This document shows positions 1-15,905 of a stretch of 22,430 nucleotides of DNA, one piece after another. The position numbers and the translations under genes are program-made. The notes beneath the pieces were generated by a model. The model did no database searches and was not told the DNA's origin. It worked only from the letters and a program-made list of their open reading frames with translations. This DNA is from a virus, in the UHGV virus genome UHGV-0073206. One strand, given 5' to 3'. How positions within the stretch are numbered: the stretch's first letter is position 1; every line of letters starts with the position of its first letter.

Positions 1-864
1 ATGAAGAACACAAGTAAGTTCCAGAATGTAGTGATTGTCACTATTGTCGGTTGGCTTGTGTTGTTTGTCTTTCTGCCCAACCTGATGATCATTGGCACCA
101 GCTTTTTGACCCGCGACGACGCCAGTTTCGTCAAAATGGTCTTTACGCTGGATAACTACACGCGTCTGCTCGATCCGCTCTATTTTGAAGTGCTATTGCA
201 CTCGCTGAATATGGCGCTGATCGCCACCCTCGCCTGCCTGGTGCTGGGCTACCCGTTTGCCTGGTTTCTGGCGAAGCTACCACACAAGGTGCGTCCGCTG
301 CTGCTGTTTCTGCTGATTGTTCCCTTCTGGACCAACTCACTGATTCGCATCTACGGGCTGAAAATTTTCCTCAGCACCAAAGGCTATCTCAACGAGTTTT
401 TGCTCTGGCTGGGCGTTATCGACACACCAATTCGTATCATGTTCACGCCCAGTGCGGTGATTATCGGTCTGGTTTACATTCTGCTACCGTTTATGGTGAT
501 GCCGCTGTACTCCAGTATCGAAAAACTGGATAAGCCGTTGCTTGAGGCGGCGCGCGATCTCGGTGCCAGCAAGTTACAGACTTTTATCCGTATCATTATT
601 CCACTGACGATGCCGGGAATTATTGCCGGATGTCTGCTGGTGATGCTGCCAGCGATGGGCCTGTTCTATGTATCCGACCTGATGGGCGGTGCGAAAAACC
701 TGCTGATCGGTAACGTCATCAAGGTCCAGTTCCTCAATATTCGTGACTGGCCGTTTGGTGCAGCCACCAGCATTACGCTGACTATCGTAATGGGCCTGAT
801 GTTGCTGGTTTACTGGCGCGCTTCTCGTCTGCTGAATAAGAAGGTGAGCGAAATAGATGATTAA
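1..864 (+). CDS. potB: Spermidine/putrescine ABC transporter permease PotB (host gene)
   Basis: 287-aa ORF beginning at window position 1 (MKNTSKFQNVVIVTIVGW...), multi-pass hydrophobic protein with ABC-permease EAA-type loop (LLEAARDLGASKLQTFIRIIIPL); recognised as E. coli PotB. No potC follows; sequence downstream is AT-rich non-coding then phage genes, so the last few codons may be insertion-derived. Confidence 0.9.
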   Translation: MKNTSKFQNVVIVTIVGWLVLFVFLPNLMIIGTSFLTRDDASFVKMVFTLDNYTRLLDPLYFEVLLHSLNMALIATLACLVLGYPFAWFLAKLPHKVRPLLLFLLIVPFWTNSLIRIYGLKIFLSTKGYLNEFLLWLGVIDTPIRIMFTPSAVIIGLVYILLPFMVMPLYSSIEKLDKPLLEAARDLGASKLQTFIRIIIPLTMPGIIAGCLLVMLPAMGLFYVSDLMGGAKNLLIGNVIKVQFLNIRDWPFGAATSITLTIVMGLMLLVYWRASRLLNKKVSEIDD

Positions 865-1263
865 TCCTTTATATTCAATGAAATAAGTTAGTTTTTAAAG
901 GGTTTTGTTGTTGAAAGAAACAGTATTGTATATTTCACCAAAATCAATCAGTTGCGTTCTAGTTTTGGAGAATGTTTTTTGAGGCTTTTTGTTAAAGCTT
1001 GTTATGCATTGCCTCAATTAATAACCTTTTTCCCAGCCCTCCCAACCGTTAAAAAGTCGGGAGGGCTTCAGGCACCAGTTGCAATTGATTTATTGGCCAA
1101 TACCAAACGCTCGGATTGAACCCAAATCCCCCAGGTTATTCAGTTCTTCCTTCATCTCCCGCTGACGTTGATAAATCTCGTGATTGCGATCGACCTGCGC
1201 CTGCGCCACCTGTCAGCGCACCTGATATCACTACAGACATAGTTTTTCTCGCGATAAATTAAA

Positions 1264-1794
1264 TCAGGAAGAGGCTTCCGGAGAGACGGGCCATTCAATG
1301 GCGTTATATGAGGTTTTATCAGTGATGGTGCTGAAATCCATCGCCTGCAGCGATTTCGCGTAAATGCGCCAGACTGTCAGCTTTTCTTTTTCTTCATCAC
1401 CGATGATTCCCAAAAGTAAATCCGTCTTCTTATCGGATATTTCCCGTTCGGCAATCGCAGTAAGACGTGCACGCTCCGACTCTGCCTGCTGCCTGTAGTC
1501 AACAGGGACCGGTAGTACTTCACCGTCTTTATAATACCAGCGCGCCTCTATACAAAAGCCATCCGGTAGTTCATCCACTTCCACAATGGTAAAACCAACG
1601 GGATAAAGACGGGATACATCTTCCGCCACGGAATAAATAACGCCGGTTTCAGGATGCGTGCACAGCTTGTATTTCTTCGTGAATTTATCCAGTGATTCAT
1701 AAAAATCCTGCCCGTCTTCACTACGGAAATACTGAATGCCGTCACCATAAGGCATGTCTTCAGGGTAGTAACGCGTAATGTTTGAGAGTTCCAT
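1264..1794 (-). CDS. Phage tail fiber assembly protein (Tfa family)
   Basis: Start at internal Met (MELSNITRYYPE...) preceded by strong SD AAGGAG; C-terminal region (...DLLLGIIGDEEKEKLTVWRIYAKSLQAMD...IEWP) resembles tail fiber assembly chaperones. The listed ORF 1264..1830 is an N-terminal over-extension. Confidence 0.65.
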   Translation of the reverse strand: MELSNITRYYPEDMPYGDGIQYFRSEDGQDFYESLDKFTKKYKLCTHPETGVIYSVAEDVSRLYPVGFTIVEVDELPDGFCIEARWYYKDGEVLPVPVDYRQQAESERARLTAIAEREISDKKTDLLLGIIGDEEKEKLTVWRIYAKSLQAMDFSTITDKTSYNAIEWPVSPEASS

Positions 1795-1808
1795 TATTTT
1801 CTCCTTAA

Positions 1809-2813
1809 TTAACCTGATACAGATCGCCATGCACCATTAATATAAATCTGAGCCTGTTTGTAATACACGCCACCGATATTGTCTGCAGAGTTACGGCCAG
1901 TATCCTGAACATTAATGCCTGACAAAACACAACCAGAAGGTGCTCGAAACGTCCAGCTGTGCTCGTTCTGGTCCTGAGTAAACGTGACTTCCGAAACAAG
2001 CAGTTCGGTATTGTCGAAACCACAGACCGGATCAAAGACAATCACCCGCTGGTTGGGTTGCCACAGCGTACCGTTACCCTGTCGCCAGCCCTGCACCACA
2101 TAGGTGGTTTCATCCGTCCGCGCCGCCCGTTGCCGGGCTTCAAAGTCAGCACGCGCAATACAGCCTGCCCCCGTAGCCTGCCCTGTCTGCCTGATATACA
2201 TCGGACGGTAACGGGCAATAAATGCGTCCTCTGTGCGGGCCCTCAGCGCGGTGGTGGTGGCCTCACCGAAATCATCGTCGTTTCCGGCACGCTGCCCCGC
2301 CACCTGGTAAACAGAAAACCGCTCCCGGATACTCTTCTCCGTATCGCAGGAAAGGATGTTTTCCCCGAGCACCAGCGCAGTATGCGCCCGCGTTGAGCCA
2401 ATACCGCCAATCACCAGCCTGCCGTGCGGGTCGTCGTAAGCCAGTGCCTGCTGCTGACCGAGTATTTTGTTGATTACCTCAATCACCGTTTCACCATGAT
2501 CGGGCTGGACGTCAGGAATAACACCCGACGGCGCACCGCTGTTCACCACCTCAATGCCGAAGGGCGCAGCAAGCGCCTGCGCAATCTGTACCAGCGATCG
2601 TCCGTTAAACTGTGTCGGTTCGGCTGCACAGTCAATCAGGTCAGCAGTCAGACTACGTCCGGCAATACCGGTGCTGACCGAACGGGCATCGTAACGAACG
2701 GGGGTCGCCTCCACCCAGCCGGTGATCACCAGTTCATCACCAATCAGCACCTCCACTTTTGAACCGTTTTTAATGCGCGGCTGAAGCGTGGTGATACCCC
2801 AGCTCGCGGACAT
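1809..2813 (-). CDS. Phage tail/baseplate protein (Mu gpP / late-control-D-like), probably a truncated or fused remnant
   Basis: 334 aa from Met with weak SD (GGGAAAG); soluble beta-rich composition typical of myophage baseplate proteins; lies between the tail tube gene and tfa where tape measure, baseplate and tail fiber genes would be expected. Family assignment is from recall and is weak. Confidence 0.4.
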   Translation of the reverse strand: MSASWGITTLQPRIKNGSKVEVLIGDELVITGWVEATPVRYDARSVSTGIAGRSLTADLIDCAAEPTQFNGRSLVQIAQALAAPFGIEVVNSGAPSGVIPDVQPDHGETVIEVINKILGQQQALAYDDPHGRLVIGGIGSTRAHTALVLGENILSCDTEKSIRERFSVYQVAGQRAGNDDDFGEATTTALRARTEDAFIARYRPMYIRQTGQATGAGCIARADFEARQRAARTDETTYVVQGWRQGNGTLWQPNQRVIVFDPVCGFDNTELLVSEVTFTQDQNEHSWTFRAPSGCVLSGINVQDTGRNSADNIGGVYYKQAQIYINGAWRSVSG

Positions 2814-2898
2814 CTTTCCCGGTGGGCTCATCAAACTCCAGTACGGAGAGTGTCTCGCCATGAGCGGTAATCGGTTTCTTTAACTCAAGCTCTTTCAT
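2770..2898 (-). pseudogene. Tail assembly chaperone fragment (42 codons: MKELELKKPITAHGETLSVLEFDEPTGKDVREL...)
   Basis: ATG overlaps the tube gene stop (TAATG) as in sheath-tube-chaperone modules; the frame terminates after 42 codons and overlaps the next ORF, consistent with a deletion removing the frameshift chaperone extension and the tape measure gene. Confidence 0.3.
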
Positions 2899-3254
2899 TA
2901 CTGGTAATCCCCTTCTTCACCGTGGAACTCAAGATCGACCGTGCCTTCTTCGGCATTATGGTTCGCTTCGCCGTGCAGCCAGGCAGACGACAGTACATAG
3001 ACCTGACCGTTCGCCAGCTCGGCAGTGATGGTCATCTCATCAGACGAGGTGATTTTGCTCACCGGAAAATTCTTCGGCACCTTGAAGGTCCCTTTGACAT
3101 AAGGCGCACGGTGAGTTTCCTTGCGGTCCACTGAACCGTCCAGGCCGATGATGTCATCATTGACCGTCCTGTTCATGGGCACCTCAATGCCGCCGGTCAG
3201 TGATAGCTGCTGACCGTCAATTTTGAAATAACAGGTTCCCCCGATACGGGCCAT
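2898..3254 (-). CDS. Phage tail tube protein (Mu gpM-like size)
   Basis: 118-aa ORF immediately downstream of the sheath fragment with start overlapping its stop; size and position match contractile-tail tube proteins. Confidence 0.5.
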   Translation of the reverse strand: MARIGGTCYFKIDGQQLSLTGGIEVPMNRTVNDDIIGLDGSVDRKETHRAPYVKGTFKVPKNFPVSKITSSDEMTITAELANGQVYVLSSAWLHGEANHNAEEGTVDLEFHGEEGDYQ

Positions 3255-4030
3255 TATGCAGACTCCTCTGAATACTGAAGACGGAACTGGTTAACCACGG
3301 CAAAGACACGCAACTGGTTAACATAGTCAGGCGGGAACAGCGTGTTCAGGCGGTTCGGATCGCTGGCATCACGCTCCACAACCAGGTACTGCTTGAACAG
3401 TTCGTAGTTTTCCACGATCCCCGCACGCTCGAGCTGACGGTAGGTTGCCAGCAGTTCCCCTTTGATCACCGCCGGGGTGACAATCGCCTGACCGGGACCA
3501 AAGCGGGTACCGTCACTGGCAAGCTTGTGACGCCCGTACTTACTGGTAATGACGGATTTCAGTTTGCGCAGTACATACGCGCTGGTATGCAGCGTCTCGC
3601 TGTCGAGGTAGCTGTTATCCGCAACCCCGTAAGCGTTTTTCCTGTACGTGGTGACATCACGCTGAATGCGCAGCACCCCGCTTTCGACATACGCCGTTGC
3701 CACGCCATGAGACAGCAGGGTCTGCTGCTCGGTCATTGTGAACCGTTTCCCCTTCGGCGCAGGCAGCATACCCACCAGCTCACCGGTCTGCGTGGGACGT
3801 GCCGGATCGTTGCGGATAAACACTGCCGCGCGGGCGGTACGGCTGGCTGCCAGCTCGTCGGCAGGCGTCTGGGTGTCTTTTTCGTACCCCGCCAGGGTAA
3901 TGTGCTGCTGGTTAAACTGGTCACCTGCGGTCACCAGTTCTGACAGCGTGCCGGTCTTTGCCGTATACACATGACCATACAGCTGACGCGCATAGCTCCA
4001 GCGACCGCTGGTATCGTTCATCTCGGTCAC
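3254..4030 (-). pseudogene. Tail sheath protein, C-terminal fragment
   Basis: 258-aa ORF directly upstream of the tube gene; sheath proteins are normally larger than 350 aa; the 5' end overlaps the out-of-frame tail of the terminase fragment, indicating a deletion junction near 4030-4090. Confidence 0.5.
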
Positions 4031-4595
4031 CGTCCTCCGGACGGCTCATGCTTTGAGCATGTACTTCAATACCAAATGCTTCACGCAATGGCTCCGTGCG
4101 TTGCGCCATCAGTCTGGCTGGACGAAAAACTTCCCACGCCTGTTTCTCTGTTGTGGCCCCGGAATACACTTCAGCGCCAAATTCATCATCGCAGGCAAAC
4201 ATATACAGACCAACGCCAGCAGACATTGCTGATTTCCCGTTTTTACGGGGTATTTCGTTGTAAGCCTCGCGAAATCGACGCAGACCGCTCTTTTTTCTCA
4301 CCCACCCAAACACAACACAGATACAGAACAACTGCCAGGGTTCAAGCGTAATGGGCATCCGCTTAAATGCCCACTCCCCTTTGGTGTGTGGCAAAAGCTG
4401 GATAAATTTCGCCACCCGCTCAGCTTTATCTTTATCAAATTTAAACGGATAGTTTTTTTTAACTGAATTTTCCAGGTCATCAAGGTGACGCTGGCAGGCT
4501 AGAACGACATAACGGCAAACCTGAATTTTTCCGCGAACCACGTCACGTGCATACTGATTTGCGGCATTAACGTTCACGTAATTTTTTCGTGTCAT
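3921..4595 (-). pseudogene. Terminase large subunit, N-terminal fragment (truncated)
   Basis: N-terminal ~180 aa ([20 protein letters not shown]...PITLEPWQ...[19 protein letters not shown]...) look like TerL and its ATG overlaps the terS stop; thereafter the frame carries low-quality sequence and ends at 3921. Full TerL would be more than 500 aa. Confidence 0.6.
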
Positions 4596-5062
4596 AGGTT
4601 TTTAAATGGATTATCGCTCCCCTGCTTCGGCGTGATAAGCCGCTGCCGACTGGCAGGATCGAGTCCTAATAAACTACCGAATGTCACCATTTGTCTGGCG
4701 GCCTCATTTGCCGCCGTGAGTGCCGGGTTTTTCTTTGGCCCCGCCTCACTCTCTACCGTAATCCCAACGCGCATAACCTCCTGCTGCGACTCATGCCAGT
4801 TGCGAAAAGCAGTGCAGAATGCAACGACGTTGTGCAAATCAGTAACATAAAGAACTCGCTGGGCACAGAGCTCACGAATAATGGTGTCCCACATATGACG
4901 AGCGGTTTCATCAAACCACTCGGGAGGCTCAGCATGGGTGATCGGCGTGAATTTTGGTTCAAACTTATTTAATGCCCGCTTGCCGGGATTGCCTGCCAGT
5001 TCCTTACGGGTAGTCGGCTTCGGCTTTCTCCCTCTTCCGGGCGCAACAGATTTTTCTGACAT
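4592..5062 (-). CDS. Phage terminase small subunit (P27 family-like)
   Basis: 156 aa, basic N-terminus ([21 protein letters not shown]), positioned immediately upstream of and overlapping TerL, downstream of an HNH endonuclease as in HK97-type packaging modules. Confidence 0.7.
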
Positions 5063-5085
5063 GTCAAATCCTGAAATTTTTAATT

Positions 5086-5165
5086 TCGCGGGTGTAAAAA
5101 TTTGACGAGGCGGGCGGTCCCGGACAGCCAGGGCTGCAGGGATTTGCCCCGCCCCTCCCTACAAG
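5086..5165. other. Candidate cos/packaging recognition region upstream of terS
   Basis: Intergenic GC-rich element (GGCGGGCGGTCC...GCCCCGCCCC) with partial dyad symmetry next to an AT-rich stretch, between the HNH and terS genes where cos sites lie in HNH-dependent cos phages. Confidence 0.25.
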
Positions 5166-5177
5166 TGAGAATAATTA

Positions 5178-5528
5178 TCACCTGATTCGTTCGCGCGCTG
5201 TTTTCGCTTTATGGCAGGGCCAGCACAGACTCTGCAGGTTGCTGTCTGCGTCTGTTCCGCCATGCGCTTTCGGGATGATGTGGTCGACGGTTTTCGCCTC
5301 GCTCACCACACCGGCACGCAGACACAACTGACACAGACCTTTATCGCGCTTCAGAATACGGGCACGAATCACCGTCCATTTTGAGCCATAGCCACGCTGG
5401 TGGCGGCTCAGTCCGCGCTGGTGCTGCACCCAGCCTTCACCACGATGTTTACCACAGTAGCCAGAACTGTCTGTTGTTGTGCCTGCGCAGCCTCGCTTAC
5501 GACAGGCGCGGGGGATCCGTGATGGCAT
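5178..5528 (-). CDS. HNH endonuclease (packaging-associated)
   Basis: Start at Met (MPSRIPRACRK...) preceded by SD AAGGAG; HNH motif DHIIPKAHGGTDADSNLQSLCWPCH and cysteine-rich N-terminus; sits upstream of terS. Confidence 0.75.
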   Translation of the reverse strand: MPSRIPRACRKRGCAGTTTDSSGYCGKHRGEGWVQHQRGLSRHQRGYGSKWTVIRARILKRDKGLCQLCLRAGVVSEAKTVDHIIPKAHGGTDADSNLQSLCWPCHKAKTARERIR

Positions 5529-5590
5529 TGGAATCTCCTTAATACCGACATTATCGCAGCCCCTCACTGAAGAGCTGCTGTAATGCCTGT

Positions 5591-5698
5591 TACTCACGAA
5601 TCAATCGAGCATGTTGACCGCTCATTTCAATGCGTAAGTATTGTGGCTTGCCGTCAATCAACGCGGTGATTAACTTATCACCTGTAGGTTTCCACATA
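5591..5698 (-). CDS. Small hypothetical protein (35 aa, MWKPTGDKLITALIDGKPQYLRIEMSGQHARLIRE)
   Basis: Not in the ORF track (below its size cutoff); ATG preceded by SD AGGAGA at good spacing; fills the gap between the lipoprotein gene and the HNH gene. Confidence 0.3.
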
Positions 5699-7425: not shown

Positions 7426-7578
7426 TTATTCAGATTTACGCAGTAAAGGCCGGAGCACGACCAGCGCCATCGCCACCAGCACACCATCTGCCAGCACCGA
7501 CATCAGTCGTCCGGTGAAATCAACCACCACTACCAGAAACAACAGGATGACAGCCAGCACAAGGCGCGCACTTTTCAC
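7426..7578 (-). CDS. Small two-TM membrane protein (50 aa), GTG start overlapping the upstream stop
   Basis: V/MKSARLVLAVILLFLVVVVDFTGRLMSVLADGVLVAMALVVLRPLLRKSE; GTG overlaps TGA of the TerB-domain gene (GTGA) with GGAG 9 nt upstream; below the ORF-track cutoff. Confidence 0.4.
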   Translation of the reverse strand: MKSARLVLAVILLFLVVVVDFTGRLMSVLADGVLVAMALVVLRPLLRKSE

Positions 7579-8177
7579 AGGTACTGCTCCAGCGGCAACT
7601 GCAGCGCCTGCGCAATTTTCTTCAGTTGCGCTTCTTCTTCCTGAGCGATACCGTCCTGGTCAGCGATATCCAGACACAGGCACAGCACATTAACTGCATC
7701 ATCAGTACCGGCAACATCAGCCAGCTGACGAAGAGCTTCGGCATTGGCAGAACGCGGCGACGCTTCATAACGGGCGCGGATATTTGCACTCATTTGTGCA
7801 ATCTCACCGGAGAACGGCGCAAAGGCAGGAAGTGCTGCAATGGTTTTTTCCAGTACCGCGATTTCTTTCGCGTCACAGGTGCCGTCAGCGTATGCAATGG
7901 AGTACGCGCCCCAGACGGTCGCCTCCACTGCGTCACGGTTCTCCATCTTCTTCACTTCGGTAATGGCCTTGCGGGTTTTCTTTTTGAAAATACTAAACAT
8001 CGTGACTTTTCCTTTTAGTGGGTGAGCCTGCATAACAAGCTGAGTCAGTATTAACTGGCAGCGTTCGCGTGAAAGGTAAGTATTCTGCGCAATTTCCCCG
8101 ACGGTCGCCGGTTCGGTGACGCTTAATTCATTAAACACCACTCTGGCGGTTTCGGTCATATCCTGCTGTTTTAGCAT
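7575..8177 (-). CDS. HTH + TerB-domain protein (N-terminal winged-helix-like segment, C-terminal TerB-like domain)
   Basis: Best start at Met MLKQQDM (8177) with A/G-rich SD; N-terminal ~55 aa contain an HTH-like segment (TVGEIAQNTYLSRERCQLILTQL); the remainder (MFSIFKKK...YADGTCDAKEIAVLEKTI...DIADQDGIAQEEEAQLKKIAQALQL) matches the two DG..E repeat pattern of tellurite-resistance TerB domains. The ORF-track start at 8300 would include the terminator and is less likely. Confidence 0.6.
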   Translation of the reverse strand: MLKQQDMTETARVVFNELSVTEPATVGEIAQNTYLSRERCQLILTQLVMQAHPLKGKVTMFSIFKKKTRKAITEVKKMENRDAVEATVWGAYSIAYADGTCDAKEIAVLEKTIAALPAFAPFSGEIAQMSANIRARYEASPRSANAEALRQLADVAGTDDAVNVLCLCLDIADQDGIAQEEEAQLKKIAQALQLPLEQYL

Positions 8178-8489: not shown

Positions 8490-9044
8490 CTAAGCGTCAG
8501 TAAAAGAAAATGCATCTCGCATCAGTGGATACAGAATAAACTCAGCTATTCTCAGCCACATATCTATACGATTGCGGCATGTTGCATAGCACCACTCAGG
8601 GTGAACCTCATTCAACAATTCAGCCATTTTGCGTTTACTCATCCCCCGCCCTTCGTACCTTTGCCGCAGGATATCAATCAATCCAGGATAACGTGCAAGC
8701 GCTTTACTTATCACCCCATCAATGCGTAACGCCTCTGCATCAGTACAGTGAGACAACCAGCTCTTCTGTCTGCCAGCGATCATCTCTCGCAAGAATGCTT
8801 CCAGCTCTGGTTTATCAATCCCTGACTCCCTGATTCTACGCAGGGCTTCATTGATTGCGGTTTTTGTCAGTTTTTTGGATGCCAGCAACTGATTGAACAT
8901 ATTTCCTGGTTTGCCACCACCTATATACGACCAACGCCCCCACATCCGTAATTTCCCCTGGATCCAGACGACTTCCAGCGTTTTTAGACGTAAATGCTCG
9001 CCGCTTTTGCCTGTAATTTCCGGATATATCATATTTACGATCAC
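8490..9044 (-). CDS. Late-gene antiterminator Q-like protein (QuuD-type family)
   Basis: 184 aa; N-terminal LRMWGRWS motif resembles the LERWGAW motif recalled for small Q-family antiterminators; position between rusA and the lysis cassette is canonical for Q. Start (GTG 9044 overlapping rusA stop, or ATG 9032) is ambiguous. Confidence 0.5.
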   Translation of the reverse strand: MIVNMIYPEITGKSGEHLRLKTLEVVWIQGKLRMWGRWSYIGGGKPGNMFNQLLASKKLTKTAINEALRRIRESGIDKPELEAFLREMIAGRQKSWLSHCTDAEALRIDGVISKALARYPGLIDILRQRYEGRGMSKRKMAELLNEVHPEWCYATCRNRIDMWLRIAEFILYPLMRDAFSFTDA

Positions 9045-9406
9045 TCACTCTCAATTTTGTAAATCTTCACGCCCAGCCGCCCCCCAGGAACGAGCTGACC
9101 GCGCACAATATTGATTTCATCAAACTGCTCGTCGTCTATGAGAAGTCCGGCATGCGTCAGCGCATCCAGTGGTGCTTTCAGGATATTGTCCAGGTCACGA
9201 CGACGTTTATCCGGTGGCTCTGCAATAATCTTTATCGCCAGCCTTCCGGACAGGTTTAATTTCAGCCGCTGCTGGCGAACAATAAGCGCCACATCACGGC
9301 GATAACGCTCACCGGCTTTTGATACAAAATATGTGCTGCCACGACGTCGCCAGTAAGTGTTCACCGTTGGCGGGTAAGGCAAAACAAATTCTATGCGTTC
9401 AGTCAT
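9041..9406 (-). CDS. rusA: Crossover junction endodeoxyribonuclease RusA (Holliday junction resolvase)
   Basis: 121 aa with RusA hallmarks (LPYPPTVNTYWRRRG, PPDKRRRDLDNILKAPLDAL, IDDEQF); typical nin-region location upstream of Q. Confidence 0.85.
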   Translation of the reverse strand: MTERIEFVLPYPPTVNTYWRRRGSTYFVSKAGERYRRDVALIVRQQRLKLNLSGRLAIKIIAEPPDKRRRDLDNILKAPLDALTHAGLLIDDEQFDEINIVRGQLVPGGRLGVKIYKIESE

Positions 9407-10390
9407 TCATGCTTTCCACTTCAGGACACCCGAATTTCTCGCGTGCATTAAAAAACGAATCAGCAACAACAGCTGGCTGCCGTGTTTTTCTTCAAAATCT
9501 TTTACCCCGGCGTGTAGTTCGCTATGGCATTTACGGCACAGCGGAATAACAAACAAATCATCAGCCTTTGTTCCCATCCCTCCCAGTCCATGACCAATGA
9601 TGTGATGCGGATCATCTGCCTGATTGCCACACGTCATGCATTTCTGCGTTTTTACCCAGCGCGTGTATACAGGCATCTCTTCCCGTTGTGGTTTCTGGCG
9701 CTGGAGATACTGAGCCGGTGACTCCGGATCAACGGCAATGCTGACCACCGTCTTTTCCTGTGGCGGGTTTTGCTGGTGGGCGTGAGGCAGTAGCGCAATA
9801 CTTTTTGTGCGCTGCTTCAGCATGCTGGTGGCGGTCTGCTCTCCCGGCACGATGTCGCTCTCGCGGTATACTGAGCGAATTTTTTCCGCGCGTAATCCCA
9901 GCGAACGACGTAACACCATCTCCGGTAGTGCGTCCGCTACGTTATTTATGGTTGCCCACCAGGATAATTCAGCCAGCGATAATTCCCGCTCCTGCGTGCC
10001 ATTCATTGCGTGGCGGATGACATCAATCATCCATGCTGACAGGTTTTGGTGAGCAAGTTGCTCGAGTGATTCGGAAGTCTGGTTACGCAGCTGGTTGTCG
10101 CAGTGCCAGCACAACACCATCGCGCCGGTACCGTAACGATGTATGACGGTTTCACTGTGATGGTAGTCACCATGAGGCCACTGGCAGGATTTAACGTGGC
10201 GTAACAGCCAGTCAGACAATGCACCAGCACCACCAGCAGCACGAATCACCCGCTCATCGCTGAAAAATGGCAGTAATGATTTATCCTCCGCCAGCGGCTG
10301 GCGAACAGCAGGAACGACTCCGGACGGCAGACCGCGCATGCTTTTCGGTTCCGGCTCCACCAGAACTCGAGGGTTATGAAATACCTGCAT
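9407..10390 (-). CDS. DUF968-family phage protein (YdfU-like) with C-terminal HNH-like zinc-finger motif
   Basis: Start chosen at Met MQVFHNPRVLVEPEP; C-terminus has CMTCGNQADDPHHIIGHGLGGMGTKADD...CRKCH; recalled as the YdfU/DUF968 family common upstream of rusA or Q in lambdoid prophages. The listed ORF to 10534 is an upstream over-extension. Confidence 0.7.
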   Translation of the reverse strand: MQVFHNPRVLVEPEPKSMRGLPSGVVPAVRQPLAEDKSLLPFFSDERVIRAAGGAGALSDWLLRHVKSCQWPHGDYHHSETVIHRYGTGAMVLCWHCDNQLRNQTSESLEQLAHQNLSAWMIDVIRHAMNGTQERELSLAELSWWATINNVADALPEMVLRRSLGLRAEKIRSVYRESDIVPGEQTATSMLKQRTKSIALLPHAHQQNPPQEKTVVSIAVDPESPAQYLQRQKPQREEMPVYTRWVKTQKCMTCGNQADDPHHIIGHGLGGMGTKADDLFVIPLCRKCHSELHAGVKDFEEKHGSQLLLLIRFLMHARNSGVLKWKA

Positions 10391-10909: not shown

Positions 10910-11065
10910 TTACTCCTCAGGTTCGTAAGCTGTGAAGACAGCGACCTCCGTCTGGCCGGTTCGGATTCGTACCTCGCAGAGGTCTTTCCTCGTTACCAGT
11001 GCCGTCACTATGACGGTTAAACAGATGACGATCAGGGCGATTAACATCGCCTTTTGCTGCTTCAT
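10910..11065 (-). CDS. hok: Hok/Gef-family type I toxin (51 aa)
   Basis: MKQQKAMLIALIVICLTVIVTALVTRKDLCEVRIRTGQTEVAVFTAYEPEE: single TM helix followed by the conserved C...R..GQ/T.EV.A...YE motif of Hok/Gef toxins. Confidence 0.85.
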   Translation of the reverse strand: MKQQKAMLIALIVICLTVIVTALVTRKDLCEVRIRTGQTEVAVFTAYEPEE

Positions 11066-11122
11066 AGCCTGCTTCTCCTTGCCTTTCGGCACGTAAGAGG
11101 CTAACCTACATTTGTGAGACAT
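10910..11122 (-). CDS. mok: Mok-like N-terminally extended frame overlapping hok (translational-coupling ORF)
   Basis: 70-aa in-frame extension (MSHKCRLASYVPKGKEKQA + Hok); the size relationship matches recalled mok/hok pairs. Not independently verifiable here. Confidence 0.35.
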   Translation of the reverse strand: MSHKCRLASYVPKGKEKQAMKQQKAMLIALIVICLTVIVTALVTRKDLCEVRIRTGQTEVAVFTAYEPEE

Positions 11123-11241
11123 AGATTGGGCCTCAGATTAATGTTAAGCGTCTTGCAGGACGCGTAATGTTAACTGGGGCTTTTCTCTATCTGCCTTTTG
11201 GTGTTCATGCCTGAGACAGATAGCCTCAAGCACCCGCAGTT

Positions 11242-11324: not shown

Positions 11325-11543
11325 TTACCGCCAGCATTCAATGCACATGACCGCCATGAACACCCCTAAAAAAAGGGCATTTATATGTCCAAACATTAAT
11401 ATCAAAACATCAATTTTTTCCATATACCTTGCTGTGAAGATGATGGGCATACATGATGCGAACAACCAGAACGCAACAAACAAAAACTGCAATGCGTTTT
11501 TCATTATTCCCCCTACAATCAATGTGCAATAACATTTAAACAC
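11325..11543 (-). CDS. Small hydrophobic membrane protein (59-72 aa, two TM segments)
   Basis: AT-rich ORF; MKNALQFLFVAFWLFASCMPIIF...INALFLGVFMAVMCIECW; no recognised family; adjacent to the hok locus. Confidence 0.4.
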   Translation of the reverse strand: MFKCYCTLIVGGIMKNALQFLFVAFWLFASCMPIIFTARYMEKIDVLILMFGHINALFLGVFMAVMCIECWR

Positions 11544-11624
11544 ACCTCAATTTGGCCGGACATATAAATATCTAAACCAGAAAAAATCACTTACATAGCG
11601 TTACAAACTCTTTAGTCTAAATAT

Positions 11625-12140
11625 TCATCGTAAAACATCCTCCACGCTTATCAGTCCATTTCGTTTCAGGTAATCCATCGCCTTCTCCGGTAATTTGCAG
11701 TCCGGCTGAGCTTTTTTCAGTTGACTGACCAGTCGTTTAACCCACATTGTTAATTCGCTAACCTGATTGCCGGATGCTGGTGGATTGTCGGCTTTACCCA
11801 GAATGGCAGCGCAGCAGGCCTCTCTGAGCACCCAGTCAACAGCATCCTTCCATGCTCCTGTTTCGACTGGCGGATTCTCACGCTTTACCTGTTCATAAAA
11901 GCGCACGGCTTTAACCAGTCCTTCTGATGTCACCGGGACTGGCGGGCCGATGAATAAGGCCTGAATTTCATAGTTCGGCCTGTCGTTACAATCCTCTTTT
12001 GTCGGTACATATTTCCAGTCACCAGCCCACGGCTTCCCCTGAAAGTCTGTAACGTCTTTTTTCACGTAGCGATATCGCCATGCAACTGGTTTTGCCTGCC
12101 CTGCCGTTTCATGCCCTTCCTGATAATTAATCTCGCTCAT
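11625..12140 (-). CDS. Hypothetical phage protein (171 aa)
   Basis: Soluble, Trp/Pro-rich N-terminal half, start overlapping the upstream gene stop (ATGA); no confident family. Confidence 0.5.
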   Translation of the reverse strand: MSEINYQEGHETAGQAKPVAWRYRYVKKDVTDFQGKPWAGDWKYVPTKEDCNDRPNYEIQALFIGPPVPVTSEGLVKAVRFYEQVKRENPPVETGAWKDAVDWVLREACCAAILGKADNPPASGNQVSELTMWVKRLVSQLKKAQPDCKLPEKAMDYLKRNGLISVEDVLR

Positions 12141-12313
12141 TCATCGCCCCACTCATCACAATATGCTTCGACCGGAGTTTTTCCTGCTTCATAATCATCA
12201 CGCCATGCTTCAGCATCAGCAGCACTGCCACCACGTAACTCTGCATAGTCCATTAACAGTTCATGCCATTCTTCAAAACTGACGTTGTATTTAGTTGAAC
12301 CAAAATCAGCCAT
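12137..12313 (-). CDS. Hypothetical small protein (58 aa)
   Basis: MADFGSTKYNVSFEEWHELLMDYAELRGG...; SD GAGGAAG; start overlaps the end of the acidic ORF upstream and the stop overlaps the next gene start; below the ORF-track cutoff. Confidence 0.4.
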   Translation of the reverse strand: MADFGSTKYNVSFEEWHELLMDYAELRGGSAADAEAWRDDYEAGKTPVEAYCDEWGDE

Positions 12314-12488
12314 TTTGTTCTTCCTCTTCGTCTTTTATTTCGTGATATGAGTAATTGCAGTAGTTAAAGAAAATATCTTTTGCTTCGTCATGTATTTCAT
12401 CAGGCGTCGCATCATCATCCACTTCGAATTCATCCTCGAAATCTCCACCGGCTATTCCCGTTTCAATAATTATTTTAAACTTTCGCAT
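12306..12488 (-). CDS. Small highly acidic protein (60 aa)
   Basis: MRKFKIIIETGIAGGDFEDEFEVDDDATPDEIHDEAKDIFFNYCNYSYHEIKDEEEEQNG; Asp/Glu-rich throughout; a GC hairpin (GCCGCCCGAAAGGGCGG) sits between a distal SD-like AGGAGG and the ATG. Confidence 0.45.
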   Translation of the reverse strand: MRKFKIIIETGIAGGDFEDEFEVDDDATPDEIHDEAKDIFFNYCNYSYHEIKDEEEEQNG

Positions 12489-12581
12489 TTAACTACCGCC
12501 CTTTCGGGCGGCCTCCTGATGTTCTGAGGGTGCAGAAATCCCTCCGGTTAAGGATTAAATTTTTAACAGAGCTAAATTTAA

Positions 12582-12938
12582 TTATTCAGTTCTGGATTTT
12601 GTCGCCCTGCGTATCCGCGCTTTCGCGTTACGCTCAATCTGAATTAGCTTTTCTATATTTTTTCGCCTTTCCCGCTCCTCCTGACGCAAGAGCCTTACAT
12701 CATCTGCCAGTCTGGTTTCTCTTTTCGCCACAGAGAGCATCCAGTCAAATGGCTCCACAACTGCACCGCAGATTTTACAGCGGACCTGACGCTCTTTTTC
12801 GTCAACCCGGACAGAGGCGTGATGACAATATGGTCTTTCCGATGGCTCATAAAGAAAATTAACCTGATTACGAGGGTCATCCTCTTTTACCGGAAATAAA
12901 ACGATATTGCTTAACTCATCCTCTGGTTTTATTTCCAT
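12582..12938 (-). CDS. Hypothetical protein with zinc-ribbon-like C-H...C-x2-C motif and Arg-rich coiled-coil tail
   Basis: 118 aa; PYCHHASVRVDEKERQVRCKICG then RLLRQEERERRKNIEKLIQIERNAKARIRR; no confident family. Confidence 0.5.
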   Translation of the reverse strand: MEIKPEDELSNIVLFPVKEDDPRNQVNFLYEPSERPYCHHASVRVDEKERQVRCKICGAVVEPFDWMLSVAKRETRLADDVRLLRQEERERRKNIEKLIQIERNAKARIRRATKSRTE

Positions 12939-13018: not shown

Positions 13019-13213
13019 TTAGGTACCCGAACGATTCAGGATTTTTTCCACCCGCAACTGGCGATTCTGGCGGTTGATCTCCTCGCTACGTTTTCGCCCT
13101 TCTGCCAGTTGCCACTCGCGCCACTCGTCCACTGTCCGGTACGGCGCGATTACATGCTGCGGGGTCAGCTTACGGATACGCTCAAGAACACCACCTGTCG
13201 CGATATTTTTCAT
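13019..13213 (-). CDS. Hypothetical small protein (64 aa)
   Basis: ORF immediately downstream of the replication gene, Arg-rich C-terminus; no recognised family. Confidence 0.4.
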   Translation of the reverse strand: MKNIATGGVLERIRKLTPQHVIAPYRTVDEWREWQLAEGRKRSEEINRQNRQLRVEKILNRSGT

Positions 13214-15426: not shown

Positions 15427-15618
15427 ATGAGTACAGCCCTTTCTCCGATAGTTTCAGAATTCGAAACTACCGAACAAGAAAACAGTTACAACGAATGGTT
15501 ACGCGCTAAAGTGGCGTCAAGCCTTGCAGACCCTCGTCCCTCAATTCCACATGATGAGGTAATGGCTGAAATGGAGAATCTTATTGCTCAAATTGCTGTA
15601 ACTAACAGGAGCGAGTAA
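15427..15618 (+). CDS. paaA2: PaaA2-like antitoxin
   Basis: 63 aa; SPIVSEFETTEQENSYNEWLRAKVASSLADPRPSIPHDEV matches the recalled PaaA2 antitoxin of the PaaR2-PaaA2-ParE2 module; SD AGGAG 9 nt upstream; stop overlaps the toxin start (TAATG). Confidence 0.7.
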   Translation: MSTALSPIVSEFETTEQENSYNEWLRAKVASSLADPRPSIPHDEVMAEMENLIAQIAVTNRSE

Positions 15619-15905
15619 TGTTACCCATTTTGTGGCTACCATCTGCTCGCGATGATTTGCGTCAGATCGTAGCCTATATTGCTAAGGAAAATATTCCTGC
15701 AGCACGCAGACTAAAAATACGGATTGAAACGTCTGTTTTAGCCCTCTCTGAGCATCCATATCTATATCCGCCAAGTGATCGAGTATCCGGTTTGCGGGAA
15801 ATTGTGGTTCACCCTAATTATATCGTTTTGTACCGAGTAGCAGCTTCAAGCATTGAAATTGCAAATATTGTGCATGCCCGCCGACAATTTCCCTTCCCTA
15901 TCTGA
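15618..15905 (+). CDS. parE2: ParE/RelE-superfamily toxin (ParE2-like)
   Basis: 95 aa; ParE-like features (DDLRQIVAYIAKENIPAARRL...LSEHPYLYPPSDRVSGLREIVVHPNYIVLYRV); translationally coupled to the antitoxin. Confidence 0.8.
   Translation: MLPILWLPSARDDLRQIVAYIAKENIPAARRLKIRIETSVLALSEHPYLYPPSDRVSGLREIVVHPNYIVLYRVAASSIEIANIVHARRQFPFPI

Follow-up and report, generated by a model that had tools for sequence, protein, structure and literature searches.

The window, that is, the whole 22,430-nucleotide stretch analysed here (UHGV virus genome UHGV-0073206), very probably represents a decaying, defective Escherichia coli prophage of the SfV/phiP27 type. It is a phage-derived integrated element that lacks genes essential to virion morphogenesis and carries truncated or chimeric ORFs made by the deletion junctions J1, J2, J3, J4 and J5, each mapped to the base. 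The element is an ordinary defective prophage of a known sort, and its host is an E. coli lineage known from assemblies of gut metagenomes. The prophage is integrated at the 3' end of potB and lies immediately downstream of this gene, next to a potB-potA-pepT-roxA-phoQP-purB flank common to contigs L004 and L016, and measures 21.6 kb versus 41.9 kb in E. coli TD225-C4 (a computed 51.5% of the length of this intact relative).

1..864, plus strand: potB, chromosomal flank (99.7% identical to the TD225-C4 PotB annotation)

As the reference, we used the full-length prophage at the same potB...int site of TD225-C4, which provides the complete gene order and, as it carries a YmfQ pseudogene itself, is intact only in a relative sense. 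All 61 reference proteins were searched against the window with tblastn, and domain completeness was judged by Pfam profile coverage. Between tfa and the HNH gene, 20 of the 26 genes had no tblastn match in the window, four further genes (TerL, sheath, chaperone and GpP) were cut, the fibre gene was left solely as a fused C-terminal remnant, and the tube and TerS genes were the only ones at full length. The proteins without a tblastn match in the window were YmfR, portal, protease, capsid, connector, head-closure, terminator and DUF2635 on the head side, in agreement with the earlier note, which had reported the portal, protease, capsid and head-tail genes as missing, and TMP, the DNA-circularization protein, gp45, gp46, J, gp48 and the 349-aa fibre-region protein on the tail side. 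The features of this region are as follows.

1114..1209, minus strand: remnant of a DUF4376-type (tail-fibre-associated) gene downstream of tfa (match to L001)
1264..1794, minus strand: Tfa, tail fibre assembly protein, 176 aa, intact (176/176 residues, 99.4% identity; Pfam Caudo_TAP)
1809..1968, minus strand: end of the 369-aa tail fibre gene (its last 51 codons and stop), continuing the reading frame of the baseplate fragment
1964..2799, minus strand: internal piece of the 359-aa Mu GpP-like baseplate assembly/hub protein, residues 46-323 (278/278 residues match the reference)
1809-2861, minus strand: 350-aa double-chimera ORF (21 junk residues, GpP 46-323, last 51 fibre residues)
2770..2898, minus strand: what is left of the tail assembly chaperone gene (36 of its 89 codons, continued out of frame for 6 codons up to a stop)
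2898..3254, minus strand: tail tube protein, 118 aa, intact (118/118 identical to the reference; Pfam Tail_tube 1-115 of 117)
3254..4031, minus strand: C-terminal fragment of the 498-aa sheath, residues 241-498 (alignment; Pfam)
3921..4595, minus strand: truncated large terminase ORF, 224 aa (the N-terminal 189 of the 576 TerL residues, continued by 35 residues read out of frame from sheath DNA)
4592..5062, minus strand: small terminase, P27 family, 156 aa, intact (156/156 identical to the reference; Pfam Terminase_4)
5107..5116, no strand assigned: cos-site homologue of phiP27 (9/10 bases versus the annotated phiP27 cos)
5178..5528, minus strand: HNH endonuclease, packaging accessory, 116 aa, intact (tblastn, Pfam)

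The Pfam matches to the four cut proteins span partial profiles only. The TerL remnant matches positions 1-74 of the 178 of TerL_ATPase and has no nuclease domain; the sheath-fragment ORF (3254-4030, minus strand, 258 aa) matches Phage_sheath_1 from position 37 to 168 of 168, followed by sheath_1C; the chaperone matches Phage_TAC_7 at profile positions 2-32 of 79; and GpP is covered only at 41-85 of 85 in GpP-like_1st and at 6-69 of 87 in GpP_4th. Residues 300-350 of the 350-aa ORF are the C-terminus of the 369-aa protein of L003. Window 1114-1968 is 99.5% identical to positions 12001-12855 of L001, where a partial DUF4376 pseudogene is annotated. The possibility that the 224-aa and 258-aa ORFs are full-length members of small protein families is thereby ruled out, since they are fragments of 576-aa and 498-aa proteins with partial Pfam profiles. 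The TerL ORF fits the earlier description of about 180 authentic residues running out of frame into the sheath, the exact figures being 189 of 576 plus 35. NCBI DAY62802.1, a MAG-derived TPA record named 'Large Terminase' of 'Caudoviricetes sp.', is the exact 224-aa chimera sequence; no exact match to the chimera was found among the gene calls searched.

The SfV/phiP27 type combines a lambdoid early region, an HNH-cos-TerS-TerL packaging region, an HK97-type head and a Mu-type contractile tail. The early region is represented by full-length Int, Xis, CI-like and Cro-like regulators, an O-like protein, RusA and the Q-like DUF1133 protein, and the packaging region by HNH, cos, the P27-family TerS and the TerL N-terminus in phage order. 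The HK97-type head genes (portal, S78 protease, major capsid and connector), present in the same-site kin, are absent because of deletion J1. The Mu-type contractile tail and baseplate set is reduced to an intact tube and fragments of the sheath, chaperone and GpP, with the other six members absent. These tail-module fragments are 98-100% identical to family members, and by this identity their descent from the SfV/phiP27-like family is clear. An R-type tailocin was considered as well and rejected, since tblastn recovers neither the N-terminal half of the sheath nor TMP and shows the fibre and most of the baseplate to be missing. As judged from gene content, virion production has apparently been lost, because no remnant would support head assembly, tail assembly or DNA packaging. 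The claim that several deletions wrecked the structural module and left no capacity for virions is fully upheld by the three-way alignments, tblastn and Pfam.

Three junctions in the structural module were located by nucleotide three-way alignment of the window with two reference genes each, and their coordinates were rechecked.

4028..4031, minus strand: J1, microhomology GGTG, 7,352 bp deleted (three-way alignment)
2793..2799, minus strand: J2, microhomology GGGTATC, 3,667 bp deleted (three-way alignment)
1964..1968, minus strand: J3, microhomology GAACG, 5,170 bp deleted (three-way alignment)

J1 joins TerL codon 189 out of frame to sheath codon 241, with loss of the TerL C-terminus, ymfR, portal, protease, capsid, connector, head closure, terminator, DUF2635 and the sheath N-terminus. 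The TerL-sheath junction previously placed at ~4030-4090 is therefore real, its exact site lying at the edge of that range. J2 joins tail chaperone codon 36 out of frame to codon 46 of the Mu GpP-like baseplate gene, removing the chaperone C-terminus, the tape measure, the DNA-circularization protein and the GpP N-terminus; the size of this deletion is equal whether L003 or L005 is the comparator. This matches the earlier account of a 42-codon chaperone ORF abutting a baseplate-like ORF without a tape measure, and J2 falls inside the range given there (~2780-2813). J3, which the earlier note had overlooked while correctly recognizing two junctions in the module, joins GpP codon 323 in frame to the final 51 codons of the tail fibre, at the cost of the GpP C-terminus, gp45, gp46, baseplate J, gp48/YmfQ, the 349-aa protein and the fibre N-terminus. 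A full fibre gene is indeed absent between the baseplate-like gene and tfa, but the 51-codon in-frame remnant shows that the two do not follow each other directly.

Together, J1, J2 and J3 removed ~16.2 kb (7.35, 3.67 and 5.17 kb) of the minus-strand structural module. In a random-junction model, the chance probabilities of microhomologies of at least 4, at least 5 and at least 7 bp are 0.016, 0.0046 and 0.0004, respectively, and the joint probability of the 4-, 5- and 7-bp microhomologies is ~3e-8. Three independent deletions, each between 4-7-bp microhomologies, destroyed the morphogenesis module, probably by illegitimate recombination (replication slippage or microhomology-mediated end joining), a mechanism deduced solely from the microhomology, which J4 (1 bp) and J5 (0 bp) do not have. 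The signature is not that of IS activity or homologous exchange between prophages. The deletions left TerL(1-189) and chaperone(1-36), each with an out-of-frame end, sheath(241-498), the intact tube gene, a GpP(46-323)::fibre(319-369) in-frame chimera and intact tfa.

Chimeric joins of this kind might also be produced by a metagenome assembler between repeated prophage sequences, and the closest matches are indeed metagenome assemblies, with the TerL chimera deposited as a MAG-derived TPA record. We regard an assembly artefact as exceedingly improbable. J1-J3 are 100% identical in an ENA scaffold, a megahit k141 contig and Logan contigs, which derive from different samples and assemblers, J1 occurs independently in L005 with a different downstream context, and microhomologies of 4-7 bp are far below the assembler k-mer length and cannot cause mis-joins. 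Because the junctions are identical in independent assemblies, they are attributable neither to chance nor to artefact. The window is 100% identical to L004 across 14 kb, and the same junctions were found, again at 100% identity, in L007/L016 and L010 (other samples, other assemblers). These contigs were recovered with the 255-aa sheath fragment and the 340-aa chimera as queries; the latter is present on 8 contigs, and the carriers of the element amount to only ~8 essentially identical contigs. The 5,426 complete RefSeq E. coli genomes contain none of J1, J2 and J3, no JGI metagenome contig matched J1 or J2, and no GTDB species representative matched J1.

Among the other contigs, L005 carries a J1 identical at the nucleotide level together with an intact chaperone-TMP-baseplate-fibre region, and differs from the window by 1 mismatch in 9,122 aligned bp. 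It also has private deletions and has lost cos, HNH and the TerS 5' end; because of these private deletions, L005 is a sister copy and not the ancestor. Since this near-identical sister has only J1 of the three junctions, the comparison shows a decay that, as read from this one intermediate contig, was stepwise, J1 preceding J2 and J3. J2, J3, J4 and J5 would then have followed J1 while ~1 point substitution arose in 9 kb. No contig came to light that carries J2 without J3 or J3 without J2. Several further contigs were considered as J1 copies or precursors and rejected. L008, L009 and L011-L013, which start ≤3 nt from the sheath-fragment ATG, are 98-99% alleles that end at a GAG/GAA polymorphism just upstream of this ATG, and the downstream tail genes of L008 and L009 are intact. 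The split sheath of L006 (240 + 255 aa) stems from a frameshift near codon 172 that has nothing to do with J1.

Outside the structural module, the window shows two more deletions.

7575..8177, minus strand: in-frame J4 fusion of the initial 49 codons of a 65-aa hypothetical gene with a TerB-family gene (alignment)
13019..13213, minus strand: DnaC-like helicase loader, truncated to 63 of 248 residues (tblastn, junction mapping)

J4, at 8031, marks the loss of 1,695 bp that encoded tRNA-Arg, tRNA-Ile and a DNA methyltransferase, and a tRNA search across the window found none. J5, at 13025/13026, truncates the loader. The earlier view that the rest of the element is intact is contradicted by these two losses, of the loader down to 63 residues and of the tRNA and methylase cargo. 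Int, Xis, the CI/Cro-like regulators, RelBE, hok/sok, DicB, RusA, the Q-like DUF1133 protein, the holins, the endolysin, HNH and TerS are all full length and share 87-100% identity with their counterparts in relatives.

This retention raises the alternative that the element is a domesticated cryptic prophage, which shed its structural genes while regulatory, toxin-antitoxin, lysis and cargo genes were selected for host benefit, as the earlier note had proposed. The full-length int, xis, regulators, RelBE, hok/sok, DicB, RusA, DUF1133, holins, endolysin, HNH and TerS are compatible with it, and cryptic prophages of K-12 have been reported to benefit their host under stress (PMC3105296). However, intact retained genes are also the null expectation after very recent deletions, the cargo was lost too, and the replication loader is truncated. 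The remnants in the deleted module are free of frameshifts and stops and match intact relatives at 98-100% identity, and a single base pair in 9.1 kb separates the sister copy from the window. Moreover, because the junctions are absent from the complete E. coli genomes, JGI metagenome contigs and GTDB representatives, long vertical retention is not indicated; vertical inheritance of the degraded element across diverged strains was not found, and the junction-bearing copies, being 100% identical, offer zero substitutions for dN/dS. With 0 of 5,426 complete genomes carrying the junctions and only a handful of identical contigs known, the designation 'domesticated' is not borne out, and we consider this alternative unlikely. 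We infer instead that the decay is recent, because the remnants are free of secondary decay and the junctions are absent from complete genomes; the evidence points to recent neutral or deletion-biased decay rather than long retention under selection.

The intact packaging genes could alternatively belong to a helper-dependent, satellite-like element, one that has kept int/xis, the immunity region and the lysis genes as well and is excised and packaged when a co-resident or superinfecting SfV/P27-type helper supplies TerL, heads and tails, possibly with packaging as a dimer. The cos homologue, HNH and TerS are kept intact, a dimer of the 21.6-kb element would be ~103% of the headful, and potential helper prophages occur in ~1,100 of the 5,426 complete E. 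coli genomes. Asadulghani et al. are also said to have found, in 2009, that defective O157 prophages can be mobilised via prophage-prophage interaction. Against these points, the loader truncation makes autonomous replication and concatemer formation doubtful, satellite-specific genes are absent, the deletion ends cut genes at random microhomologies and not at module borders, and the architecture is not conserved, with none in the 5,426 complete genomes. The loss of cos, HNH and the TerS 5' end in L005 further argues against selection for packaging functions. Neither a functional replication module of its own nor a conserved compact architecture, as in PICI-like elements, was found, and we rejected the satellite reading on gene content as highly improbable. 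A combined scenario, in which a deletion burst in a natural E. coli lineage (after J1, at least 4 deletions here and at least 1 in the sister against ~1 substitution per 9 kb) was accompanied by possible excision and helper-dependent dimer packaging by common SfV/P27-type prophages, made possible by the surviving int/xis, immunity, lysis and cos-HNH-TerS genes, is in our judgement very unlikely.

The sheath-tube-chaperone DNA of the window is 97.7-98.1% identical to that of SfI, SfV, SfII and SfIV of Shigella flexneri, and the HNH-cos-TerS-TerL DNA is 97.3% identical to that of the Stx2e phage phiP27; SfV and P27 have been grouped as relatives (PMC2771037). SfV, SfI, SfII, SfIV and phiP27 are complete, plaque-forming phages of 37-43 kb, whereas the window lacks ~16 kb of the morphogenesis module, and no phage record spans at least 80% of window 1264-5600. 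The TerS-HNH intergenic region aligns with that of phiP27 at 111 of 115 positions. The ETEC strains TD225-C4, B7A, AST19 and E203449 carry a full-length prophage at the same potB site and in the same orientation, which aligns with 87% of the window (97.6% identity) and shares the integrase, immunity region, lysis and packaging genes. These ETEC copies keep the whole TerL-to-fibre module, the tRNAs and the methyltransferase, which the window does not, and their early-region mosaic is partly different, with ParDE where the window has hok/sok.

When the cryptic prophage e14 was taken from the E. coli K-12 record and scored with these reference proteins, it proved to have a structural module of the same type that has decayed in the same style, together with a lambdoid early region and int/xis. 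It keeps TerL 200-576 (77% identity), YmfR (98%), portal 1-139 (98%), baseplate J 74-351 (69%), YmfQ and the fibre N-terminus, and contains chimeras formed by internal deletions, namely ymfN (replication::terminase) and beeE/jayE (a portal-to-J join). In contrast to the element at potB, e14 is inserted at icd, and the two integrases are only 48% identical. The breakpoints differ and are largely complementary, as e14 has lost the TerL N-terminus, sheath, tube and GpP, precisely the pieces that the present element keeps, and e14 lacks the lysis and TerS genes that are retained here. While e14 is fixed in K-12 and has been studied experimentally, the present element is known from only a few assemblies.

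Annotations should mark the ORFs of 224, 258 and 350 aa as chimeras or pseudogene fragments derived from 576-, 498- and 359/369-aa proteins, and the TerL chimera deposited as the 'Large Terminase' of a Caudoviricetes sp. MAG should not count as a viral genome or a new protein family. The importance beyond annotation is small and lies in the locus as a base-resolved case of stepwise, seemingly microhomology-mediated prophage decay with a natural intermediate, which may be of use for calibrating prophage-completeness tools and for comparing deletion with substitution rates in prophages.

Whole-window megablast against 5,426 complete E. coli genomes identified one genome, that of the ETEC strain TD225-C4, which covers 87% of the window at 97.6% identity, and its match to the 22.4-kb window stretches across 42.7 kb. 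This region (L003) is a full-length prophage in the same potB...int position, a stretch that in the window is filled entirely with phage-derived DNA.

1-864, plus strand: potB; the window begins at its start codon
21312-22430, plus strand: tyrosine integrase; its stop codon is the window end

The late genes of TD225-C4 lie on the minus strand and comprise, each group in order, packaging genes (HNH, P27-family TerS, the 576-aa TerL, YmfR), head genes (portal, HK97-type protease, major capsid, connector, head closure, tail terminator, DUF2635), tail genes (498-aa sheath, 118-aa tube, 89-aa tail assembly chaperone, 611-aa tape measure, DNA-circularization protein) and baseplate/fibre genes (359-aa Mu GpP-like protein (GpP), gp45, gp46, baseplate J, gp48/YmfQ, 349-aa and 369-aa fibre-region proteins, Tfa). 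The same order was found in ATCC 43886 and several metagenome/Logan contigs. Downstream of tfa, the window carries a partial DUF4376 pseudogene (1114-1209), and about 135 bp (988-1122) have no counterpart in TD225-C4, where the position is taken by 1.8 kb that include a SAM methyltransferase and partial copies of tfa.

The tblastn searches with all 61 reference proteins left 20 of the 26 genes in the tfa-HNH interval without a match in the window, including YmfR, portal, protease, capsid, a 66-aa protein, connector, head closure, a 168-aa protein, terminator, DUF2635, tape measure, DNA-circularization protein, gp45, gp46, J, gp48 and the 349-aa protein. Four genes (TerL, sheath, chaperone and GpP) are cut, the fibre gene survives only as a fused remnant, and both tblastn and Pfam show tube, Tfa, TerS and HNH at full length. 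The Pfam matches bear out that the four cut ORFs are fragments: TerL_ATPase is matched over profile positions 1-74 of 178, the nuclease domain being missing, Phage_sheath_1 37-168 of 168, Phage_TAC_7 2-32 of 79, GpP-like_1st 41-85 of 85 and GpP_4th 6-69 of 87. The 224-aa TerL and 258-aa sheath ORFs are not full-length small proteins, as their sequence clusters hold 576-aa terminases and fragments of 498-aa sheaths.

At each suspected breakpoint, the window was aligned with both flanking reference genes, and all coordinates were confirmed by reading the sequence. Three deletion junctions were mapped in the structural module.

4028-4031: J1, cross-over within a 4-bp GGTG (alignment of window, TerL and sheath)
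2793-2799: J2, 7-bp microhomology (alignment of window, chaperone and GpP-like gene)
1964-1968: J3, 5-bp microhomology (alignment of window, GpP-like gene and fibre gene)

At J1 (7,352 bp deleted), the TerL match runs to ...CCGGAGGACGGTG and the sheath match starts from GGTGACCGAGATGAAC, leaving 189 authentic TerL codons followed by 35 out-of-frame codons from sheath DNA with a stop at 3921, while the sheath can still be read in frame from codon 241 through to its own stop codon. At J2 (3,667 bp), the chaperone match ends at ...GAGCTGGGGTATC and the GpP-like gene picks up from GGGTATCACCACGC; the chaperone retains 36 of its 89 codons, joined out of frame. At J3 (5,170 bp), the GpP-like match extends to ...CAGGACCAGAACG, after which the window follows the 369-aa fibre gene from GAACGAGCACAGC. 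The 350-aa baseplate-like ORF thus consists of 21 junk residues, GpP residues 46-323 (278/278 identical to the reference) and, joined in frame, the last 51 fibre residues. The earlier note's view of a structural module broken by deletions is therefore borne out, and its TerL-sheath and chaperone-baseplate joins were correct; it had not seen J3, and the fibre gene that it considered absent before tfa persists as this 51-residue remnant.

If junctions fell at random, the probabilities of microhomologies at least 4, 5 and 7 bp long would be 0.016, 0.0046 and 0.0004, respectively (joint, ~3e-8), values that fit illegitimate recombination mediated by microhomology. The deletions in the window involve no IS element, unlike the decay of the related prophage at the tRNA-Ser/hya site of E. 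coli JNE12-007 (NZ_AP045061.1, 12696-15334), where an ISEc31 insertion truncated the tape measure and removed the baseplate genes.

The junctions are real. A 143.6-kb ENA scaffold (L004) is 100% identical to the window over 14,021 bp and continues into a normal E. coli flank (potB-potA-pepT-roxA-phoQP-purB), and contigs from two other samples and other assemblers (L007/L016 and L010) are 100% identical across J1, J2 and J3. The 340-aa GpP-fibre chimera is present on eight contigs, and the exact 224-aa TerL chimera is NCBI DAY62802.1 ("MAG TPA: Large Terminase [Caudoviricetes sp.]"). An assembly artefact is accordingly very unlikely. The sheath fragment is likewise deposited, as DAY62803.1, a "tail component" of the same MAG-derived "Caudoviricetes sp."; both entries come from a defective chromosomal prophage, so that a catalogue of viral genomes now includes one. 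Five further contigs from different samples (L008, L009, L011, L012 and L013) were rejected as carriers of J1: they start at most 3 nt from the sheath-fragment ATG (4021-4023), apparently because the contigs break at a GAG/GAA polymorphism immediately upstream, which shows that a look-up by exact protein can give the false impression of a shared junction.

A Logan contig (L005, SRR31140281), with one mismatch to the window in 9,122 aligned bases, carries J1 with identical nucleotide sequence, yet keeps complete chaperone, tape measure, circularization protein, GpP, gp45, gp46, J, gp48 and fibre genes, so J1 arose first and J2 and J3 afterwards. L005 is a sister rather than an ancestor, given its private losses: a 660-bp deletion (SRR31140281_164, ~9037-9044; 8-nt overlap in BLAST coordinates) removes window 4986-5645, comprising HNH, cos and the TerS 5' end, and window 11518-12810 is also missing. 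J1, J2 and J3 were found in none of the 5,426 complete E. coli genomes, ~1,100 of which hold relatives of the flanking genes, nor in JGI metagenome contigs (J1 and J2 searched) or GTDB representatives (J1 searched). The module remnants are 98-100% identical to intact relatives, with no secondary frameshifts or stops. Taken together, these results point to recent decay within a single lineage. The sheath gene has also been inactivated by another route: in an otherwise complete relative (L006, Logan ERR11256535_188, 8680-10175), an independent frameshift near codon 172 splits it into calls of 240 and 255 aa.

Most genes outside the structural module are full length: Int, Xis, the 823-aa exonuclease, DicB, YdfABC, RelBE, CI-like and Cro-like regulators, YdaT, the O-like replication protein, hok and sok RNA, DUF968, RusA, the Q-like DUF1133 protein, two holins, the M15 endolysin, HNH and TerS. 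Where the window has hok/sok, TD225-C4 has ParDE.

10910-11235: hok, 70 aa (PF01848), and full-length sok antisense RNA (Rfam RF01794, 120 bits)
15427-15905: RelBE
8031: J4, 1-bp overlap; 1,695 bp lost versus L005 and L002
7575-8177, minus strand: ORF in which J4 has put 49 codons from a 65-aa hypothetical gene in frame with a TerB-family gene
13025/13026 (ORF 13019-13213): J5, no overlap or microhomology

The claim that the regulatory, toxin-antitoxin, lysis and cargo genes are intact thus holds for most of them, but two deletions, whose flanks are 100% identical in L005 or references, qualify it. J4 removed tRNA-Arg, tRNA-Ile and a DNA methyltransferase, and ARAGORN found no tRNA in the window. 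J5 left only 63 of the 248 residues of the DnaC-like helicase loader and took out DUF977/DUF1627, DUF4406 and an Ea22 N-terminal region found in relatives; with the loader cut and neighbouring genes gone, the replication module is probably defective. Domestication, the earlier reading of these intact neighbours, has no support in the sense of long retention under selection, and we consider it unlikely, since such neighbours are simply what recent deletions leave.

The HNH-cos-TerS-TerL segment is 97.3% identical to that of the Stx2e phage phiP27, and the sheath-tube-chaperone DNA is ~98% identical to that of Shigella phages SfI, SfV, SfII and SfIV; a classification of the Myoviridae based on proteomes also lists SfV and P27 as related (PMC2771037). 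Window 5107-5116, GAGGCGGGCG, matches 9 of 10 bases of the annotated 10-bp phiP27 cos site and lies between TerS and HNH in a conserved intergenic stretch (111/115 identical); the packaging signal is thus kept despite the truncation of TerL. A helper-dependent, satellite-like life style could draw on the retained cos site, HNH and TerS, and on an element 51.5% of the intact length, a dimer of which would therefore fill a head; however, the helicase loader is truncated, breakpoints cut through genes, the architecture is not conserved and L005 has lost cos/HNH, making this life style highly improbable.

The element is a defective lambdoid/SfV-type prophage of the well-known e14-like kind, and e14 of E. 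coli K-12 is the closest defective element known. By the same reference proteins, e14 keeps TerL 200-576, YmfR, portal 1-139, baseplate J 74-351, YmfQ and the fibre N-terminus, and its annotation includes the chimeric gene ymfN and the pseudogenes beeE and jayE. The module type and mode of decay are the same, whereas e14 occupies the icd site, its integrase shares 48% identity and its breakpoints are complementary. The best explanation of the sequence is an SfV/P27-like prophage in recent, progressive decay that would be unable to form virions. Its value is modest: it offers a natural series of decay steps resolved to the base, and it calls for caution with catalogues of viral MAGs.
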